DNA from: a virus
UHGV virus genome: UHGV-2155131
Strand: one strand, 5' to 3'
DNA length: 11,422 nucleotides
Every line of letters starts with the position of its first letter. Within the stretch, counting starts at the first letter, position 1. The notes under the pieces were generated by a model. That model made no database searches. It was not told the DNA's origin and saw only the letters and a program-made list of their open reading frames with translations. Made by a program: the position numbers and the translations under genes. Positions 2,473-11,125 of the stretch are shown one piece after another.

Positions 2473-2808
2473 TTATCGGGCCAGCGGCTGAACGGATACG
2501 CCGGAACCCGCAAAGGCGGCGCATTTTTTCGCATCGGTGTCGACGCTCTCAGGCCAGTTAACGGCGGCAATATTGAATATCCCCGTCTTGTAACACTGTG
2601 CTGATTTCTGCTTTGACGTGTCCACAGGGTACGAGGTCAGATAAACAGCCTTGCCAGATTCCTTACCATCCCACGGCTTAAACTCGCCATTGTCCGCCAG
2701 CATCAGCGGGGTAAATTCCTGAATAACGCCAGCATCAGCGGCAAAATGTACCAGCGTCGTGGCGACCTGCTGACTGCCTGCAAATAACTCAATGTATGGA
2801 GTGTCCAT
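2473..2808 (-). CDS. Head decoration protein, lambda gpD-like
   Basis: 111 aa. Shares TPLML, WDG, YKxGxF, WPE and KKxAAFAG motifs in the same order as lambda gpD (recalled from memory). GGGGG Shine-Dalgarno motif 6 nt before ATG. Confidence 0.8.
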   Translation of the reverse strand: MDTPYIELFAGSQQVATTLVHFAADAGVIQEFTPLMLADNGEFKPWDGKESGKAVYLTSYPVDTSKQKSAQCYKTGIFNIAAVNWPESVDTDAKKCAAFAGSGVSVQPLAR

Positions 2809-2819
2809 AGAATCCCCCG

Positions 2820-3875
2820 TTAACCAATTTTGACGGTAACAAATTTGCGAATATCTGCCGGAACCGGCTGCGGTGCGCTGTGCGTCTGCACGTACTCAAT
2901 CGCCGGATCGCCGTCCTCAATCCAGTTTTTCGGGTAAAACATGTTTTGCGTTGCGCCCGTTCTTACTGCGTCCTGATCCATAATCGCACCATAGGCCACC
3001 AGCCCTTTATTGTTGGTGTTGCCCAGGACAAGCAAATCAGGCTCAAGGAAATATTTTTCTGTGCCGTCGCTGTCAGTGTATTTGCCGGAATAGACGATAA
3101 GGGCAATATCGCCCAGATAGCCTTTAAAGCTCACCACTTCGCCCAGGTTTTTACAGGCCAGCTCTGCGGCGGACTCTGAACCACGGGAAAGATCGTACAG
3201 CTCACGGAATTTTTTAAAGCTGCGTAACGTTCGCCATACCTCAGCGCCCATAATCATGACGTTTGCGGGGCAACCAGCCTGATCGGCGTATAGTTCGATA
3301 TCATAGATTGGATCGTGGGTTTCTTTGTCCTGCTCTGACCATTTTTTCCCGTCGGCCTGCTCTATGATGTTTTTTTCCGGTATCTTCCAGTCGATTTCAT
3401 AGCGCTCTATGCCTTCGCCTTCAATGATGTTTTTTCCGGTCGTTACCGCATTTACCGCCAGCCATTCCACGCGCGCTTTTATGGCGTTTATCTGGCGGCG
3501 CATATTGCCAGTAATCAGGCGCATACGGCGATAGGTAGGGTCGTTAAGCTGTGCCGGATCTTCTCCAGCCATGCGCATGATGGTTTTCGTTGGATCGATT
3601 TCGTGCTTTGGCTTCATGTAGCCAGGTTTAATCGTGCTGGTTTCGTACCCTTTATCGCGCTGAACCTGGCTACCCACCATAGGCGAACAAAACGCCGACA
3701 TGGTGACTTCTTCAATGTCCAGGGTATCCAGCATGATGTTTTGCGTGCTGAATGTCGCCACGTTCGGGAAAAACAGCGTGGTAAACAGCGGACTGAATTT
3801 AAATTCCGCAATATCCCCGCGATTCAGGTACGCAAAAAGCTGGTTAGTGTTAAGTGCCATTGCTTTTACTGTCAT
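2820..3875 (-). CDS. Major capsid protein, lambda gpE family
   Basis: 351 aa. Collinear with lambda gpE across the whole length (FKFxPLF, TPGYxKPKHE, DPxYRRxRxI, WSxxDKxTxDP, YSGxY, VLGNT, YPKNW, GDPA, SAP). Start overlaps the upstream stop (TAATG). Confidence 0.9.
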   Translation of the reverse strand: MTVKAMALNTNQLFAYLNRGDIAEFKFSPLFTTLFFPNVATFSTQNIMLDTLDIEEVTMSAFCSPMVGSQVQRDKGYETSTIKPGYMKPKHEIDPTKTIMRMAGEDPAQLNDPTYRRMRLITGNMRRQINAIKARVEWLAVNAVTTGKNIIEGEGIERYEIDWKIPEKNIIEQADGKKWSEQDKETHDPIYDIELYADQAGCPANVMIMGAEVWRTLRSFKKFRELYDLSRGSESAAELACKNLGEVVSFKGYLGDIALIVYSGKYTDSDGTEKYFLEPDLLVLGNTNNKGLVAYGAIMDQDAVRTGATQNMFYPKNWIEDGDPAIEYVQTHSAPQPVPADIRKFVTVKIG

Positions 3876-4321: not shown

Positions 4322-4594
4322 TTAGCTGTCTGGGTAATTACGCCATATTTCATCGCTTACACCATCTATACCCATTTCAGCATAAGTGCGATCTACTGCC
4401 TTTCTCAGGTCTCCGAAGTTATCCGGCGGCTCCGGTGGCTTCTGTGCCTTCCTGGAACATTCCAGCCGTCGCATCGTAACCTGATGCCGTTCCTTGTCTG
4501 TCTCCACCAGTTGCATGACTTCACCCCATCGTGCCGCCGCCCTCCGGTAAAAGCCTTTTGCCTCGAGTTCCTCCGCTATGCGGTCATGTACCAT
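4322..4594 (-). CDS. PerC-family transcriptional regulator-like protein
   Basis: Motif AEELEAKGFYRRAAARWGEVM resembles the conserved PerC/Pch core as I remember it. Preferred start is ATG 4594 with GAGGGGG upstream, directly after the SSB-tail stop. The ORF track extends to a GTG at 4714. Confidence 0.55.
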   Translation of the reverse strand: MVHDRIAEELEAKGFYRRAAARWGEVMQLVETDKERHQVTMRRLECSRKAQKPPEPPDNFGDLRKAVDRTYAEMGIDGVSDEIWRNYPDS

Positions 4595-4604
4595 CCTCAC
4601 CCCC

Positions 4605-4897
4605 TCAGAACGGAATATCATCACCGTAAGGGTCATCGCCTCCCGCTGGTGGCTGATTACCCTGTGTGCCTGTGGTCTTGCGTCTGTTCCCGCCAGGACG
4701 TGCCGCACGGGCACTGATTACGCTGTCTGCAATAACCTGATAACCCTGCCGCGTTTCCCCGTTCTGTCCGGTCCACTGGCTGATCTGCATGGCAAAGATA
4801 CCGCCATACGCGCCAGCGTCATCGGTGTACCCTTGCTGGTCTGTTTTACCTGCGGGTCGTCCACCAGCCGCCCGTAAGCGGCTATCTGTGCTGTCAT
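4605..4897 (-). pseudogene. SSB-like gene remnant in two frames: N-terminal OB-fold fragment (4718..4897) and C-terminal fragment ending in the DDIPF acidic tip (4605..4790)
   Basis: Frame A (MTAQIAAYGRLVDDPQVKQTSKGTPMTLARMAV...) resembles the SSB N-terminus. Frame B (...QISQWTGQNGETRQGYQVIAD...GGDDPYGDDIPF) resembles the SSB beta4-5 region and C-terminal tail. The frames overlap out of phase, about 40 aa of OB fold are missing, and no slippery heptamer was seen. Confidence 0.5.
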
Positions 4898-5172
4898 GAT
4901 TCCACCTCTCCGGTTTTAACGTTGATGGTTGTTACCTGTTCCGCTTCTGCAATCTCCCGCTCTGTCAGCGTGGCAAAGTTTGCCGCCGCCGTGGTCATGA
5001 ATGCGCTTATTAGTTCGGGATGTGCTTTCGAGTATCCTTCTCCCGCTGTGATGTCTATCACCTTTATAGCCACCTTTAAGGCGTGCTCTGTCATCTCCAG
5101 CGCTTTATATCTTGGTGCTGTTCTGTCTTTGCGTTTTTTGAGTGATTTGTTAAATCTTCCTGATGTGTGCAT
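4894..5172 (-). CDS. Hypothetical protein (92 aa)
   Basis: ORF starting next to the iterons. Its stop overlaps the SSB-like frame A start (ATGA). Function not recognised. Confidence 0.45.
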   Translation of the reverse strand: MHTSGRFNKSLKKRKDRTAPRYKALEMTEHALKVAIKVIDITAGEGYSKAHPELISAFMTTAAANFATLTEREIAEAEQVTTINVKTGEVES

Positions 5173-5220
5173 TTTTATTTTTACCCTCGTGTTTAAAAAG
5201 TTTTAGGTTGTGGTGCACCT

Positions 5221-5445
5221 CCTCTACCTCTCTACCTAATCATCTTTCATGTCAGTAATGGCGCGGCTTTCAGATGGGTAGAGGGCTTTCGTGGCCCTCT
5301 ACCCATCCTCTACCCGCCCCTCACAAACGATCTTAATCATGGTAGAAGAGGTAGAGAGGTTTTATTAGCCTTCTACCTAGCCCTCTACCCACTTATCATG
5401 TTGAATAATATGCGTTTATTTCATTCAGGTAGATTGGGTAGAGGG
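5221..5445. repeat. Iteron array; candidate replication origin downstream of the primase gene
   Basis: About 10 copies of CTCTACC / GGTAGAG in both orientations (e.g. 5222, 5230, 5276..5285, 5295..5304, 5307..5315, 5350, 5381..5390, 5436..5445), including the palindrome gggtagagggc-N7-gccctctaccc (5276..5304). Flanked by AT-rich stretches. Confidence 0.6.
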
Positions 5446-5458
5446 CTTTTACAAAAAA

Positions 5459-7207
5459 TTATAAAAACGCGTCACAATCATCAGTTGTAATTGCGTTGGT
5501 CTGCGTTACTCCCTTAACTCTCCGCGTAATATATTCATGTCCGTAAACTTTTGCCGCTGGCTTCATGGCCTTGCTGAACTCAGCCACGTTTAGCGGTTTG
5601 CTCCTGCCTGCGTATGCCATAAACGCCAGATAGACGCGGTAAAGGCTGTTTCTGGTCGTGTACTTCACGGAATCGCCACCGCCACCCATCATCAGGCCGC
5701 GAGCTTCCTCCAGAAAATTCAGGAACTGGCAAAACTCAATAACCGGATCCGTCTGTTGCTTTATCGCCAGTGCTTCATCACCGTCGCGCTGTTCCAGTAA
5801 TAAAGCCCGTGCCTTTTCAGGGTCGGCAAAATTAGCCAGCAAGCGACGGATAATTACGGGGATTTCAGCCGCGACCTTCTCCGGCAAATCCTTGTCTTTT
5901 TCGTCCTCCCTTACAATGTTGTCGAACCGGAAAATCACCCGACGGCGTGACACACCTCCGGCCCGCTCGGTGAATATCATCGGGTTATTGTTGGTAGCCA
6001 GCACCACCGCCCTGATTACCGCCGTAAAACGCTTCTCATATTTCGGGTTTATTTCCACTGGGTCGCCGCCCGTGATTTTCTTGATGCCCGTTCCTTCGCC
6101 TGTATATTTCGGCTGGTCAGCCAGGACGATAAGACGACTCCCGACAACCTGCGCACGTCCACCAGCATCATCAAGTGAGGTCATTTCAGCGCTTACCGTG
6201 TTCTGTTTCCCTGCCAGAAGGCTGGCTATGTGCGTGAATGTACTTTTACCGCTACCGCCCTCTCCGGTGGCCTCAATAAACATCTGCCAGTCGTACCGGT
6301 TCGCCATAATCATGTACAGCGCGGCACATATACGCATCATCTTGCGCGGGTCTTTTCCGGCTGCGTGCTCAAGCCATTTATGAAAGTTTGGCGCGTTGTC
6401 GCAGATATTCTCCCCTGGTGCTGGTGGCGTGTACTCAATGCCGTTGTGCGTGGTGATCCAGTTCTCCGGCGTGTGCGGGGAAAATTCCCCCGTTTTCAGG
6501 TCAAGCGCACCATTGGCGAACGGCAGCAAATCGCCGGACGGCTCCCCCATTGGTTCGGCAATAACTTTTAACGCTTCAACGGCGTTATTGATCACGCGTT
6601 TGCTAAAAGTGGCCCTGTGCTCTGAATAGATCGCCACCATTTCGCGGCTAAGTTCCATTGTGCTGACCGGACACCATACCCCGCCGCGCCATACGTGAAC
6701 GATTTCACTTTCCGGATGCACACAAACGCCATCAAATCGACCAGCAAGCATCTGTGCGCGCTCACTGTCTGCCATTTGTGCCAGTTGCGTATTTTTCTGC
6801 TCCGGCATGGTAAGCCCTGCGGCAATATTTTCACGCTCAGCATTCAGATAGCGCCGCCAGTTTTCACACTTCTGGACGTGCATTCCTTCGGGGTAAAAAT
6901 TTGCGTCCTGAATATCTGCCGCCGCCAGCTTCTGACCAATCTTTTTGGTCTCCACCAAATCCAGTTCTCCGGCCTGGTACAGCCTTACGCGTTTTTTTCC
7001 ATCCGGAACAATTTTCAGTGCATCAAGTTCGGCAAGCTGATTTGGCCCAAGCCACACAGGCGGCACATTATCGCCGGATGCGGGGCCATCCTGCTCCTGC
7101 CATTGTTTCGCGTGCGACCAGGCATCACTACCCGCGAAAATAATTACCTCTGTGTCTTTGTGTTTTATTCCGCGTGGCTGTTTTTTTACGTTCGGTGCCA
7201 GTTTCAT
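5459..7207 (-). CDS. P4-alpha-like primase / SF3 helicase replication protein
   Basis: 582 aa. Walker A motif GEGGSGKST mid-protein with a D5_N-like upstream region, typical of phage/plasmid primase P4-family C-terminal domains. GGGG motif before ATG; ATGA overlap with the upstream gene. Confidence 0.85.
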   Translation of the reverse strand: MKLAPNVKKQPRGIKHKDTEVIIFAGSDAWSHAKQWQEQDGPASGDNVPPVWLGPNQLAELDALKIVPDGKKRVRLYQAGELDLVETKKIGQKLAAADIQDANFYPEGMHVQKCENWRRYLNAERENIAAGLTMPEQKNTQLAQMADSERAQMLAGRFDGVCVHPESEIVHVWRGGVWCPVSTMELSREMVAIYSEHRATFSKRVINNAVEALKVIAEPMGEPSGDLLPFANGALDLKTGEFSPHTPENWITTHNGIEYTPPAPGENICDNAPNFHKWLEHAAGKDPRKMMRICAALYMIMANRYDWQMFIEATGEGGSGKSTFTHIASLLAGKQNTVSAEMTSLDDAGGRAQVVGSRLIVLADQPKYTGEGTGIKKITGGDPVEINPKYEKRFTAVIRAVVLATNNNPMIFTERAGGVSRRRVIFRFDNIVREDEKDKDLPEKVAAEIPVIIRRLLANFADPEKARALLLEQRDGDEALAIKQQTDPVIEFCQFLNFLEEARGLMMGGGGDSVKYTTRNSLYRVYLAFMAYAGRSKPLNVAEFSKAMKPAAKVYGHEYITRRVKGVTQTNAITTDDCDAFL

Positions 7208-7739: not shown

Positions 7740-7959
7740 AAATTTTCTCCCTTATTCTTTTAATGTCCTCATTAAGGATGTCTGTAACTTTTATCAGCGA
7801 GTTTTTGGCAATTATTTTTATTGTTTTAAGTTTTCTTTTGTCGTGCTCCGACTGTGATTTTCTTTCCATAATCTCCACCATGTGGGTAACATCAACGAGC
7901 GCACGTATCAGTATTTGCATTGCTTCTTCTGCTGCGTCCGGACGGGTGTTATTGCACAT
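7729..7959 (-). CDS. Small hypothetical protein (76 aa) in a low-GC segment
   Basis: Strong AGGAGG Shine-Dalgarno motif 6 nt before ATG 7959. 11-nt overlap with the downstream gene. Confidence 0.55.
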   Translation of the reverse strand: MCNNTRPDAAEEAMQILIRALVDVTHMVEIMERKSQSEHDKRKLKTIKIIAKNSLIKVTDILNEDIKRIREKICDA

Positions 7960-8155
7960 GGCACACCTCCTGACGAATACGGGCAGCGAATACCATCACG
8001 CAGCCAGCCGGGGATTGCTGGCGTGCTTCCTGTTCGCTGGTGGCCTCGATGGTAATCACGCGCGGTTGTGCCGTGCTCAGGGCGATAAAACGCCAGATGT
8101 ATTTATTCAGGTCGTGCGAGTCCCGCCCTTGCGGGTGTGTGGTATGATTTCTCAT
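7949..8155 (-). CDS. Small hypothetical protein (68 aa), probable first gene of the leftward replication operon
   Basis: Internal ATG at 8155 with GAGG 6 nt upstream. Protein-like translation (MRNHTTHPQGRDSHDLNKYIWRFIALS...). Same frame as the long 439-codon ORF. Confidence 0.4.
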   Translation of the reverse strand: MRNHTTHPQGRDSHDLNKYIWRFIALSTAQPRVITIEATSEQEARQQSPAGCVMVFAARIRQEVCHVQ

Positions 8156-9268
8156 AGCTGCCTCGATACTTTCGCTATCGTTGGTGGTTAGAAGCCCGGT
8201 TAGTGTTAGCGCACTGCCGGGTTTCGTCGTTTCTGCACCTTGCGCCAACAAGGTGTTGAACACCAATTTAAACCCAGGTGTTAAACACGTCAAGTGTTGA
8301 ACACTTATTTTTTTTCCTGCATACTGCATTTGTTTTTTATGAGGGGTACACCACATGGCGACAAAAGCAGTAAACGCAAAATCACAAACCGTTGCGGCAA
8401 GGGTTCCGCATGAAGTTATGAACAATGTTGAGGCGGTAAAAATGCCTGGCGAAAGTACGGGGCAATTTGTTACTGCGGCATTAAAACGAGAAGTTGAATA
8501 TCGCCAGCGGCGCAAGGCCAGTGAATCCGAGAAATCATTAATCACGTCATAACATGAAGAACGATGGCGATAATCATAGGAGTAAAAGATGTTAAAATTA
8601 AAAAAACATGTACCAATGATGGTTGCTTTAATTATCACAATCTTTCTCTTAATATCATGCTTTGAGAAAAATAGTCTTTGCTCAAACGATAAGGGCGATT
8701 TATTACGGCGTGCTTGCGATGTAGAGTTGAAAAAAAGTTGAGCACTACCTAACCGAGACAATGCCGTAGTTCCTGTAATCACAGGATCGCTCAGGCTTTG
8801 CCCACCAGCCGCAAATATGGCATTGTTGGCAATGCTCATGCGTTGGGGATAACGTGTAGCTTGTGTCGAGGGGCCACCGTAGCGGGTGGCCTTTGTTTTG
8901 CCCGTTATTCGGCAATTGTGGCGCTTCTCCACATGGTTGATATAATCCCACTGCTCAGATTCATTTTTTGCGCAGTAGGTTAATTGTTCACAAAGGCGCT
9001 CCGGCAACGGGGCGCTTTTTGTTTTTATTAGTTTGTAGAAACCTGACTCAGAGATAATGCTCATATTCTGATTGCCGTCAGGGGTGTAAGTTAAATTTAC
9101 TCCCTTTTTATCATCAAACATCTGCAACGCTCTGGCGTTAACAATATTGGTTTCACTCCCGCCAGTAAGGCCGGAAATAACCGGAATAATTTCGGCAAAA
9201 TTTTGCAGATTCTGTTTTTCAGGACGAACGAAGCCCCGCCCTTGTTCGGGAGAATATCCAGTATTCAT
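7949..9268 (-). CDS. Bro-N domain (antirepressor-like) protein; only the N-terminal ~175 aa (about 8745..9268) is recognisable and the 3' extent is uncertain
   Basis: DGNQNMSIISESGFYKLI...LPERL matches the Bro-N core motif (NMNIINESGLYSLI). The frame then runs stop-free for about 800 nt through low-complexity translation, antisense to the RHH gene and the operators. Confidence 0.45.
   Translation of the reverse strand: MNTGYSPEQGRGFVRPEKQNLQNFAEIIPVISGLTGGSETNIVNARALQMFDDKKGVNLTYTPDGNQNMSIISESGFYKLIKTKSAPLPERLCEQLTYCAKNESEQWDYINHVEKRHNCRITGKTKATRYGGPSTQATRYPQRMSIANNAIFAAGGQSLSDPVITGTTALSRLGSAQLFFNSTSQARRNKSPLSFEQRLFFSKHDIKRKIVIIKATIIGTCFFNFNIFYSYDYRHRSSCYDVINDFSDSLALRRWRYSTSRFNAAVTNCPVLSPGIFTASTLFITSCGTLAATVCDFAFTAFVAMWCTPHKKQMQYAGKKISVQHLTCLTPGFKLVFNTLLAQGAETTKPGSALTLTGLLTTNDSESIEAAMRNHTTHPQGRDSHDLNKYIWRFIALSTAQPRVITIEATSEQEARQQSPAGCVMVFAARIRQEVCHVQ
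8253..8304. promoter_or_regulatory. Three operator-like inverted repeats GTGTTNAACAC within divergent promoters
   Basis: Copies at 8253..8263, 8278..8288 and 8294..8304. Rightward promoter candidate: -35 TTGAAC (8297..8302) and -10 CATACT (8320..8325). Leftward candidate: -35 TTGACG (complement of 8288..8293) and -10 TAAATT (complement of 8265..8270). Confidence 0.5.
8355..8552 (+). CDS. Ribbon-helix-helix-like small DNA-binding protein (putative island repressor/regulator)
   Basis: GAGGGG Shine-Dalgarno motif 8 nt before ATG. N-terminal beta-strand with alternating hydrophobics (TVAARVPHEV) followed by two helices, as in Arc/CopG-type proteins. Diverges from the operator region. Confidence 0.5.
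   Translation: MATKAVNAKSQTVAARVPHEVMNNVEAVKMPGESTGQFVTAALKREVEYRQRRKASESEKSLITS
8589..8666 (+). CDS. Candidate 25-aa cationic/hydrophobic peptide (MLKLKKHVPMMVALIITNLSLNIML) downstream of the RHH gene
   Basis: Canonical AGGAG 6 nt upstream of ATG. Below the ORF-track size cutoff. Composition resembles small membrane peptides. Translated by hand. Confidence 0.25.
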
Positions 9269-9320: not shown

Positions 9321-9509
9321 TTAGTGAACTGCCTCGCAGCTGTCCTTCCATGCCAGAACTTCGGATAAAGACCAGCCAACGGAACGACCGCCCAGCTTAC
9401 GCCGTGATGGGAATTGTCCGGCTTTTTCCAGGCGGTACCGACATGAGCGGCTCAGGCCTGTAAGTTGCTGACATTCTTTTTCACGTATAAAGCGATCTGT
9501 GCTTAACAC
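9321..9509 (-). CDS. alpA: AlpA-family phage transcriptional regulator / excisionase-like protein
   Basis: 62 aa with the LxxxxRSVGWxxSEVxxW signature of AlpA-type winged-helix proteins. Located between int and the rest of the island, as in PICIs and P4-like elements. Confidence 0.8.
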   Translation of the reverse strand: MLSTDRFIREKECQQLTGLSRSCRYRLEKAGQFPSRRKLGGRSVGWSLSEVLAWKDSCEAVH

Positions 9510-9874: not shown

Positions 9875-11125
9875 TTATATTTCTCTGGCTATTGGCAATG
9901 TGGTTACGTTTTCATGTGTTCCCGCCAGTATCCCTAACCGCTCCGTCCACATATCCAGCGCGTCACGTTTCGCATCCAGATAACGGGAATGGTTATAGAC
10001 TCGTTGCATCCCTGGCATCTGATGACCTGTAAGCTGCTCCACGACGTGAGGATCCACGCCTAAATCGTTCAGCATCGTTGTAAAGGTGCGCCGGATGTCA
10101 TGCAGTGACCAGTGAGGGTGTTTTAGCCTCCTGTGCGCTAATCTACCGTACTGCGACACGCTTGTTTCCTGTTTCACTTCCCCCAGCAATAAGCCCGTGT
10201 GCCTGTTCTGCTCCACCAGCTGCGTGACGAACGGCAGTATTGCTTCCGGTATGGGCCGGAATATTGCCACCTTCGTTTTGCTGTGTTCTTTCGGCACGGT
10301 CCAGAGCATTTCGGTAAAATCCCACTCGCTGATCTCCGATAACCTCAGTTCTACCGTCCGGCATCCGAAAACAATCAGGAGGCGGATTAGTGCGACGTAG
10401 TAAGGGGAAAATATTTTTTTGTCCAGTGCCTGCAATAATTCGCCAAGTTCTTTGGTGCTTAAGACACGCTCGCTTATATCCGGTTTTTTCCCAACGTCCG
10501 CCACACTCATATCATCAAGAACGTTGCTGATTGCATAGCGCCGCCTCCGGCAGAACTTAAGCGCCTGTTTGCACGTCTGTAGCAAGAATCCGGCAGTAAC
10601 AGGCGTTCGCTTTGCCACCTGGTCAAAACAGGCCAGCCAGTGCCGTAGCTCGCATTTATCCAGCGGCATAGCACCAATGTGCTGTATTACGTGATTATTA
10701 AGGCGCTTTTTCAGGGCGGCATAATCCACGCGGTTTTCCTTTGCGTACGACTCAAGCCAGTAGGTGAGCGCATCGCCAACCGTTACCGGCTTTAACGCTT
10801 CCTGTACGGTGTAATTAAGCTCATGACGTGGATTTTTCCCCTCTGCCAGCCATGCGCGACACTGGGCGGCTTTTTCCCTGGCTGATTTCAGGCTCAGATC
10901 AGGATAATTTCCCAGCTTAATGCGTTCCGGTGGTGCCCCCCTTCCCGTTCCGGCCCTGTAAGTGAAATACCAGGTTAAAAGGCCACTGGTTGAATGCCTG
11001 ACGCTCAGGTTTCCACCGTCATTAAGAAAGGCTGTTTTTTGGGCGGGTGTGCCGTTGATTTTCCTCAGCTGTGTATCGCTCAGTTTGTTAAGTGCTCTGC
11101 TCATAATTTTGATTCCGGTCATCAC
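9875..11125 (-). CDS. int: P4-family tyrosine integrase
   Basis: About 410 aa. N-terminal arm-binding-like region (LSDTQLRK...GGNLSVRHSTSG...WYFTYR) and C-terminal catalytic region with an HxxRRT-like motif (LHDIRRTF). The 11125 start is GTG; ATG alternatives at 11122 and 11104. Confidence 0.9.
   Translation of the reverse strand: MMTGIKIMSRALNKLSDTQLRKINGTPAQKTAFLNDGGNLSVRHSTSGLLTWYFTYRAGTGRGAPPERIKLGNYPDLSLKSAREKAAQCRAWLAEGKNPRHELNYTVQEALKPVTVGDALTYWLESYAKENRVDYAALKKRLNNHVIQHIGAMPLDKCELRHWLACFDQVAKRTPVTAGFLLQTCKQALKFCRRRRYAISNVLDDMSVADVGKKPDISERVLSTKELGELLQALDKKIFSPYYVALIRLLIVFGCRTVELRLSEISEWDFTEMLWTVPKEHSKTKVAIFRPIPEAILPFVTQLVEQNRHTGLLLGEVKQETSVSQYGRLAHRRLKHPHWSLHDIRRTFTTMLNDLGVDPHVVEQLTGHQMPGMQRVYNHSRYLDAKRDALDMWTERLGILAGTHENVTTLPIAREI

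Follow-up and report, generated by a model that had tools for sequence, protein, structure and literature searches.

The intergenic gap downstream of the alpha-like helicase gene in the window (the whole stretch of DNA analysed here, 11,422 nt) is very probably the vegetative replication origin of a phage-inducible chromosomal island (PICI) of the EcCICFT073 type. The window itself is an EcCICFT073-like PICI, an E. coli phage satellite; EcCICFT073 is the prototype of Gram-negative PICIs. A satellite iteron origin 3' of the initiator gene had been proposed in a preliminary description of the sequence, and that proposal is borne out by homology to the tested EcCICFT073 origin, by conserved iteron cores, by a P4-type binding domain in the initiator and by covariation between this domain and the iterons. 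The basic picture is already established for EcCICFT073, and the window origin is an allelic variant of the described origin type. The new points are modest: a two-module layout, apparent natural swaps of binding domain and iterons, a conserved 21-bp box, and an initiator with no detectable primase domain.

The origin region and its iterons

The gap is 286 bp long and runs in the direction of the island operon, which is on the minus strand. It reaches from the stop codon of the 582-aa gene to the start of the next gene, and thus lies 3' of the former (Table 1). A small hypothetical gene is annotated at the position of the downstream gene in L001, in EcCICFT073 (L002) and in other relatives.

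Table 1. Features of the origin region, the initiator and the surrounding island.
Feature	Position	Strand	Description
Origin gap	5173-5458		between the stop of the 5459-7207 (-) gene and the start of the 4894-5172 (-) gene
Module A, P4-ori-like core	5341-5445	-	from the iteron map
AT-rich spacer	5392-5427	.	36 bp, 75% AT; presumed DNA melting site
Module B, P4-crr-unit-like	5223-5314	-	from the iteron map
Perfect palindrome	5273-5307	.	two long-form iterons head to head
Conserved non-iteron box	5253-5273	-	CTGAAAGCCGCGCCATTACTG, 21 bp; near-invariant in 59 distinct origins
A-tract/T-tract	5191-5204	-	AAAACTTTTTAAAC in gene sense; directly after the last iteron pair
Ribosome-binding site of next gene	5184-5188	-	downstream of the A/T tract
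ATG of next gene	5170-5172	-	after the ribosome-binding site
Downstream gene	4894-5172	-	92 aa, phrog_1231; marks the 3' boundary of the origin
Truncated SSB ORF	4718-4897	-	59 aa, against 136 aa in relatives; ~108-bp deletion relative to L001
PerC ORF	4322-4714	-
Replication initiator Pri-Rep, P4 alpha-like	5459-7207	-	582 aa; Pfam scan, 89% identical to EcCICFT073 Pri-Rep
Initiator N-terminal segment (aa 1-150)	6758-7207	-	hypervariable, mosaic; no Pfam family
D5_N domain	aa 151-280 of the 582-aa protein		Pfam scan
SF3 P-loop helicase DUF5906	aa 314-415 of the 582-aa protein		Pfam scan
C-terminal Pox_D5/winged-helix domain	aa 485-573 of the 582-aa protein		Pfam scan
Putative origin-binding winged-helix domain, coding part	5486-5752	-	aa 486-574
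439-aa ORF	7949-9268	-	low-GC stretch (0.39-0.45)
AlpA-like excisionase/regulator	9321-9509	-
Integrase	9875-11125	-

GGTAGAG occurs eight times in the window, every time at 5222-5443, against a mean of 0.57 in shuffled sequences, none of 200 of which reaches eight. For the hexamer GGTAGA, 13 copies are seen in the whole window where 2.5 are expected. Eleven of these GGTAGA/TCTACC hexamers stand at 5223-5442, five on the plus strand and six on the minus strand, and the two in the other 11.2 kb are inside the integrase gene, at about chance level. By the seventh base, the 11 hexamers are made up of eight GGTAGAG, two GGTAGAA and one GGTAGAT, so the roughly ten copies of GGTAGAG/CTCTACC in both orientations that had been counted earlier correspond to eight exact 7-mers and three variants. 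A long form of the iteron, TGGGTAGAGGGC(T), 12-13 nt in length, is present in four copies, and two of its sites are non-palindromic.

A single-protein scan of GTDB genomes for relatives gave only three loci, and an alignment scan of IMG/VR, with 569 relatives, gave useful diversity. Among 15 E. coli loci, the TCTACC/GGTAGA cores are fixed in position, and the flanks and spacers are variable. In a set of 59 distinct related origins (the E. coli loci plus IMG/VR relatives), mean column conservation is 0.91 in the hexamer cores versus 0.71 at the intervening positions of the cluster (Mann-Whitney p ~1e-10, a descriptive figure only, because columns and sequences are non-independent). This pattern suggests that the hexamer cores are the selectively conserved functional units of the origin.

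The cluster divides into two modules. Module A, read in gene sense, opens with two TCTACC (5442-5437, 5433-5428) and the AT-rich spacer, which is followed by two inverted GGTAGA (5389-5384, 5377-5372) and then by another two TCTACC (5355-5350, 5346-5341). Module B, in the same sense, opens with two GGTAGA (5314-5309, 5303-5298) and an inverted TCTACC (5282-5277), and ends with the 21-bp conserved box and two GGTAGA (5236-5231, 5228-5223); after it come the A/T tract and the ribosome-binding site of the next gene. The IMG/VR loci L079-L082, L085 and L086 have module B ahead of module A (330 nt after the initiator gene), opposite to the order in the window and EcCICFT073. Thus, the modules are separable units. 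This two-module, P4-like layout with permutable order goes beyond the first reading of the region and is a modest new point. One E. coli locus (L012, FDAARGOS_943, 2339-2543) has a 205-bp origin with six iterons, in which the middle iterons are missing and the initiator gene is intact; this may be a minimal or a disabled origin.

The AT-rich spacer of module A is bracketed by a perfect 13-bp inverted repeat (5379-5391 / 5435-5447), and both ends of the origin region are 74-78% AT. AT-rich stretches between the repeats, as first described, are thus present, but they are moderate: the spacer, at 75% AT, falls in the 94th-96th percentile of duplex instability in the window and is not its least stable site, which was counted against the origin reading. 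An AT-rich spacer of similar length (about 36-38 bp) is there in every E. coli relative examined, with varying sequence.

Two further conserved elements are not iterons. The 21-bp box has a single occurrence in the window and is still recognisable in L085, which has TGTTCA iterons; neither the DnaA nor the IHF consensus fits it. The A/T tract is invariant in the 15-locus alignment, and L016, L017, L085, L089 and both P4 crr units have a comparable tract behind their terminal iteron pair. A scan of 5000-5650 found no sigma-70-like promoter and no terminator-like site, and thus lends no support to a promoter or operator function of the region, or to the palindrome as a terminator. An RNA gene was considered and dropped, as an Rfam scan of the whole window returned no family.

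The palindrome

The preliminary description had noted a palindrome with 11-bp arms at 5276..5304, within what is here module B, as a possible dimer binding site or hairpin. The palindrome exists and is perfect, but its size was understated: the arms are 14 bp, GATGGGTAGAGGGC at 5273-5286 and GCCCTCTACCCATC at 5294-5307, with a 7-bp spacer. The centres of the two hexamers are 21 bp apart, or about two helical turns.

As single-stranded DNA, the palindrome has a strong predicted fold (-19.5 kcal/mol, z = -6.65), which is the point in favour of the palindrome being the working element of the region, as a hairpin or cruciform that serves in single-strand initiation, termination or nicking, with the other repeats incidental. 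Conservation of the hairpin was not found across relatives, where arms range from 5 to 14 bp, spacers from 7 to 16 bp and folding energies from -3 to -16.5 kcal/mol. In many of them the arms are only 5-9 bp with spacers of 10-16 bp (-3 to -8 kcal/mol), and the inverted hexamer pair stays. The long arms of the window are explained by the meeting of two copies of the 12-13-nt long-form iteron, which is also found at two non-palindromic sites. Additionally, the stem is not followed by a T-run, and the palindrome is therefore not an intrinsic terminator. A hairpin as the working element is thus highly unlikely. The preferred reading of the palindrome is two putative binding sites placed head to head, and not an obligatory hairpin; of the two functions first suggested, paired inverted sites are upheld by the hexamer pair kept in relatives, and an obligatory hairpin is contradicted by the shrinking of the arms.

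The initiator protein

The protein encoded upstream of the origin carries D5_N, an SF3 helicase and a C-terminal Pox_D5 domain (Table 1), the last with a Pfam score of 21.1 bits, just below the cut-off of 21.4. Residues 486-574 match the origin-binding domain of P4 alpha (PDB 1KA8) with E=5.5e-6 from the single sequence and E=2e-24 from a five-sequence profile. Residues 193-437, spanning the P-loop helicase, match the structure of SaPI PriRep (7OLA, E=2e-14). By analogy with P4 alpha, we infer that the C-terminal domain binds the GGTAGA iterons.

P4 alpha and an alpha-like protein of Morganella have Zn_Ribbon_Prim and Toprim ahead of D5_N, helicase and Pox_D5. No Zn-ribbon or Toprim primase domain was detected by Pfam in the 582-aa protein, even when its N-terminal 150 aa were searched at E<=1. 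The annotation as a "DNA primase family protein" is therefore unsupported at the domain level, and the first description of the region as directly 3' of a primase/helicase gene is right as to position, the gap beginning at the stop codon, but finds no support as to the primase. With no recognisable primase domain, priming for the island is probably supplied by host DnaG or by the N-terminal 150 residues of the protein itself. This N-terminal segment is 28-100% identical among proteins that are otherwise 91-100% identical. It was rejected as a determinant of specificity, since it does not track origin type: L009 has an N-terminus 100% identical to that of the window, yet a CFT073-type origin, and L004 has one that is 62-78% identical, yet a window-type origin.

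Relationship to the tested origin of EcCICFT073

In EcCICFT073, a fragment carrying pri and ori was able to maintain a temperature-sensitive plasmid, and colony numbers at the restrictive temperature were significantly lowered by ori deletion or pri mutation (Fillol-Salom et al. 2018, ISME J, PMC6092414). For the ori deletion, the text of that paper reports a reduction and does not state abolition. With the island coordinates taken from its supplement, the published primers were mapped: the pri-ori clone spans L002 5196-7307, and the pri-delta-ori clone spans L002 5196-7000. From these clone ends, the deleted "ori" is the whole intergenic region, homologous to 5150-5454 of the window. The cloned-fragment replication assay called for earlier has in effect already been done on this homologue, where deletion of ori lowered Pri-dependent plasmid maintenance.

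The two islands have in common the order DUF4222, pri-rep, origin, small ORF, SSB, PerC, capsid E and decoration D, and their initiators are 89% identical. The origins are of almost equal length (286 bp in the window, 288 bp in EcCICFT073), each with 11 GGTAGA/TCTACC hexamers aligned in register, and the conserved box and the A/T tract are found in both. However, identity over the intergenic region is only ~63%, and the transfer of function from EcCICFT073 across this distance was counted against the origin reading. The base beside the core is G in most copies of the window (GGTAGAG, with GGGTAGAGGGC as the long form) and C or T in most copies of EcCICFT073 (GGTAGAC, with TGTCTACC as the long form). 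Module A is arranged as 2/2/2 direct/inverted/direct copies in the window versus 2/1/3 in EcCICFT073, and the palindrome arms are 14 bp versus 8 bp. The islands also differ in the integrase and in their regulatory part.

If the window origin works in the manner of P4 alpha and SaPI Rep with their origins, helper-phage induction would lead the 582-aa protein to bind the GGTAGA iterons through its C-terminal domain. Oppositely oriented pairs of iterons, about one helical turn apart (8-12 bp), would bracket the 36-bp AT-rich spacer, where the SF3 helicase would self-assemble and melt the DNA. Melting would then start replication of the excised island before packaging.

Comparison with P4, SaPI and plasmid origins

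The features of P4 are taken from the GenBank annotation of X51522 and from general background. The annotated P4 ori (X51522 9310-9413) consists of TGTTCACC twice, 35 bp of AT-rich DNA, one inverted copy, 14 bp and three direct copies. The crr locus is directly 3' of alpha and has ten type-1 repeats in both orientations; its 120-bp unit comprises inverted and direct repeats, a CTGAAA motif and a terminal inverted pair, then an A/T tract. The window resembles P4 in several respects. The helicase and origin-binding domains are homologous (40% identity over aa 133-571, and the match to 1KA8), the iterons are short and in both orientations, and the cluster lies directly 3' of an alpha-like gene, as crr does. 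Module A has the layout of P4 ori, to which the 2/1/3 layout of EcCICFT073 is identical, and module B resembles the crr unit, although this match is looser than that of module A to ori. The CFT073-type 8-mer TGTCTACC differs from the P4 type-1 repeat TGTTCACC at two of eight positions. The differences are that the core in the window is GGTAGA/TCTACC and not TGTTCACC, that there is one composite cluster where P4 has ori and crr 4.5 kb apart, that the window is without the crr-style 120-bp duplication, type-2 repeats or a terminator after the gene, and that its protein is without the Zn-ribbon and Toprim domains of alpha.

The location beside an alpha-like gene is that of crr in P4 and not of ori, which counts against the origin reading. 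The cluster could accordingly be a cis replication enhancer like crr, bound by the initiator, with replication starting elsewhere, as in P4, where the true ori is 4.5 kb off; the resemblance of module B to the crr unit points the same way. However, module A has the layout of P4 ori, no second GGTAGA cluster is found in the window (two stray copies are at chance level), and in EcCICFT073 a fragment with only pri and the homologous region sufficed for plasmid maintenance. An enhancer of this kind is quite improbable, and the cluster is preferred as the origin itself.

The rule described for SaPI origins is 6-12 penta- or hexanucleotide iterons directly after rep, around an AT-rich centre that is flanked on either side by two or more iterons pointing in opposite directions; SaPI Rep combines an SF3 helicase with a winged helix at its C-terminus (PMC9371898). 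The window agrees with this rule, having 11 hexamers with two direct copies, the AT-rich spacer and two inverted copies. It differs from SaPIs in iteron sequence and host clade (Staphylococcus aureus for SaPIs), and sequence similarity between the initiators is in the helicase core only (7OLA), the C-terminal domain of the window protein matching P4 and not SaPI.

Theta plasmid origins of the pSC101, F, R6K and P1 type have iterons of 17-22 bp, mostly in direct tandem, which are bound by winged-helix initiators of the RepA type, along with DnaA boxes and often IHF sites. They are like the window origin in having repeated initiator-binding sites beside an AT-rich region, near the initiator gene. 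They differ from it in that its core is 6 bp (up to 13), in both orientations, and its initiator is itself an SF3 helicase. Searches with the DnaA-box and IHF consensus found no site in the origin, and host-initiator sites of the plasmid type were set aside on this basis.

A similarity search of the origin against phage records gave no match, which rules out a copy of a helper-phage origin or cos. That the region is the packaging signal (cos or pac) of the satellite has next to no probability: packaging sites of the helper type do occur in satellites, and cosB regions often contain repeats, but the origin is similar to no record of the phage collection, the published EcCICFT073 cos sequences (PMC6092414 supplement) look unrelated when compared by reading only, and the repeats track the DNA-binding domain of the initiator and not the packaging genes.

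Iteron class follows the binding domain

In all examined loci with enough 3' sequence where the initiator is at least 69% identical to that of the window, 6-12 copies of GGTAGA are found 3' of the gene. Where it is 52-55% identical, TGTTCAC, TGTTCAT or GTATACA repeats are found at the same position instead. A Serratia locus with a diverged C-terminal domain has TGTTCAC(C), which is the P4 type-1 repeat, a P4-like locus of Morganella has TGTTCAT, and IMG/VR loci have GTATACA or TGTTCAT.

The sharpest comparison is between L087/L094 and L089/L091. Across the helicase gene, their DNA shows 95-100% identity, a level reached again further downstream. Identity is lower in the final 300 nt of the gene (~70-90%), where the binding domain is encoded, and in the origin (55-70%). 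With this change, the iteron switches from GGTATACAT to GGTGTTCAT, and the diverged cassette lies at about 2640-3200 of the locus. The difference resembles a natural switch of specificity, and L087 has kept a few repeats of the other type. Taken with the other loci, such natural swaps of binding domain plus iterons appear to define several recognition classes, with the reservation that physical linkage could account for part of the covariation, since the codons of the domain are within 300 bp of the origin. Within the GGTAGA class, domains with A542/S545 go with C beside TCTACC (GGTAGA-G, as in the window), and those with N542/G545 go with G or A. There may thus be a finer split, of A542/S545 with GGTAGA-G and N542/G545 with GGTAGA-C, which is kept as a hypothesis because these codons are within 120 nt of the origin and linkage could explain the pairing. 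If the recognition classes are real, they could set which co-resident satellites cross-activate or interfere with one another in replication.

The repeats might alternatively be operators for a transcription factor of the island or helper that controls the downstream morphogenesis genes. In favour of this, the region immediately precedes the next gene, AlpA-like and PerC regulators are encoded by the island (9321-9509 and 4322-4714) with targets unmapped in the window, and the conserved box and the A/T tract are unexplained. Such a function is nonetheless very unlikely, as 5000-5650 has no sigma-70-like promoter, the repeats change with the C-terminal domain of the initiator while flanking DNA is 95-100% identical, and the same region of EcCICFT073 is needed for Pri-dependent replication. 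A secondary regulatory role may belong to the repeats, the conserved box or the A/T tract.

A broader model, held tentatively and at somewhat less than an even chance, is that the enterobacterial PICI origin condenses the two-part P4 replicon into a compact form open to rearrangement. In this model, ori-like and crr-like modules would have been joined beside an alpha-like helicase that lost its primase, their order would have been swapped in some lineages, and the binding-domain and iteron cassette would be exchanged or diverge as a unit, giving at least four classes (GGTAGA, TGTTCAC(C), TGTTCAT and GTATACA). PICIs and P4 have been argued to have evolved independently (PMC6092414). Replication specificity and the relation between PICIs and P4 could be approached through the two-module layout, through the natural swaps in which binding domain and iterons change together, and through the 21-bp box.

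Distribution and island context

The minus-strand gene order of the window is integrase, AlpA-like regulator, 439-aa ORF, DUF4222, the 582-aa "primase", the gap and the small ORF, followed by a truncated SSB, PerC, a lambda E-type major capsid gene and a D-type decoration gene. E. coli S1-CAM-02-A has an annotated island with the same order from DUF4222 through the decoration gene. From 7737 onward, the window has no match to the closest E. coli island, and the integration and regulation module is thus mosaic. The 439-aa ORF, which had no Pfam or PADLOC match, sits where that island has Icd-like and ash genes; its last 90 residues are similar to "transcriptional repressor" families of phages (phrog_6196, E=1.5e-53), and its N-terminal part has a short motif like that of anti-repressors. 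As a result of the deletion in SSB, the PerC ORF gains an upstream in-frame extension. A run of 97 N at 2102-2198 breaks the ORF 2053-2460, downstream of the head-decoration gene.

Of 5426 complete E. coli genomes, 560 (~10%) have matches to a 451-bp query taken around the region, in 597 places altogether and in up to four per genome. All matches are chromosomal, and each is at the 3' end of a gene annotated as "DNA primase family protein". Co-resident satellites may thus share initiator and iteron specificity. The pri-ori module is joined to differing packaging modules, with a lambda E/D-type capsid, an HK97 capsid and protease, or TerS (loci L003-L011). For annotation, the origin type can be recognised by an alpha-like helicase gene followed by ~290 bp with 9-12 GGTAGA hexamers, and the "DNA primase" label can be corrected, as no primase domain is detectable. 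The origin lets the satellite amplify after helper-phage induction, and PICIs of the EcCICFT073 type spread virulence and defence genes.

A similarity search of plasmids with the origin gave two partial matches, which are uninformative for function. One is a remnant beside a truncated primase-like gene in pKP187. The other, L102 (CP088587.1, "plasmid" pD17EC0246-3, 32.5 kb), is deposited as a circular, non-mobilizable plasmid without a replicon type. It contains a capsid-forming PICI with the pri-ori module, and its flanks (clcB, mlc, pntAB, ydgH) are chromosomal; the record represents either a misassembly or a piece of chromosome that was amplified or excised.
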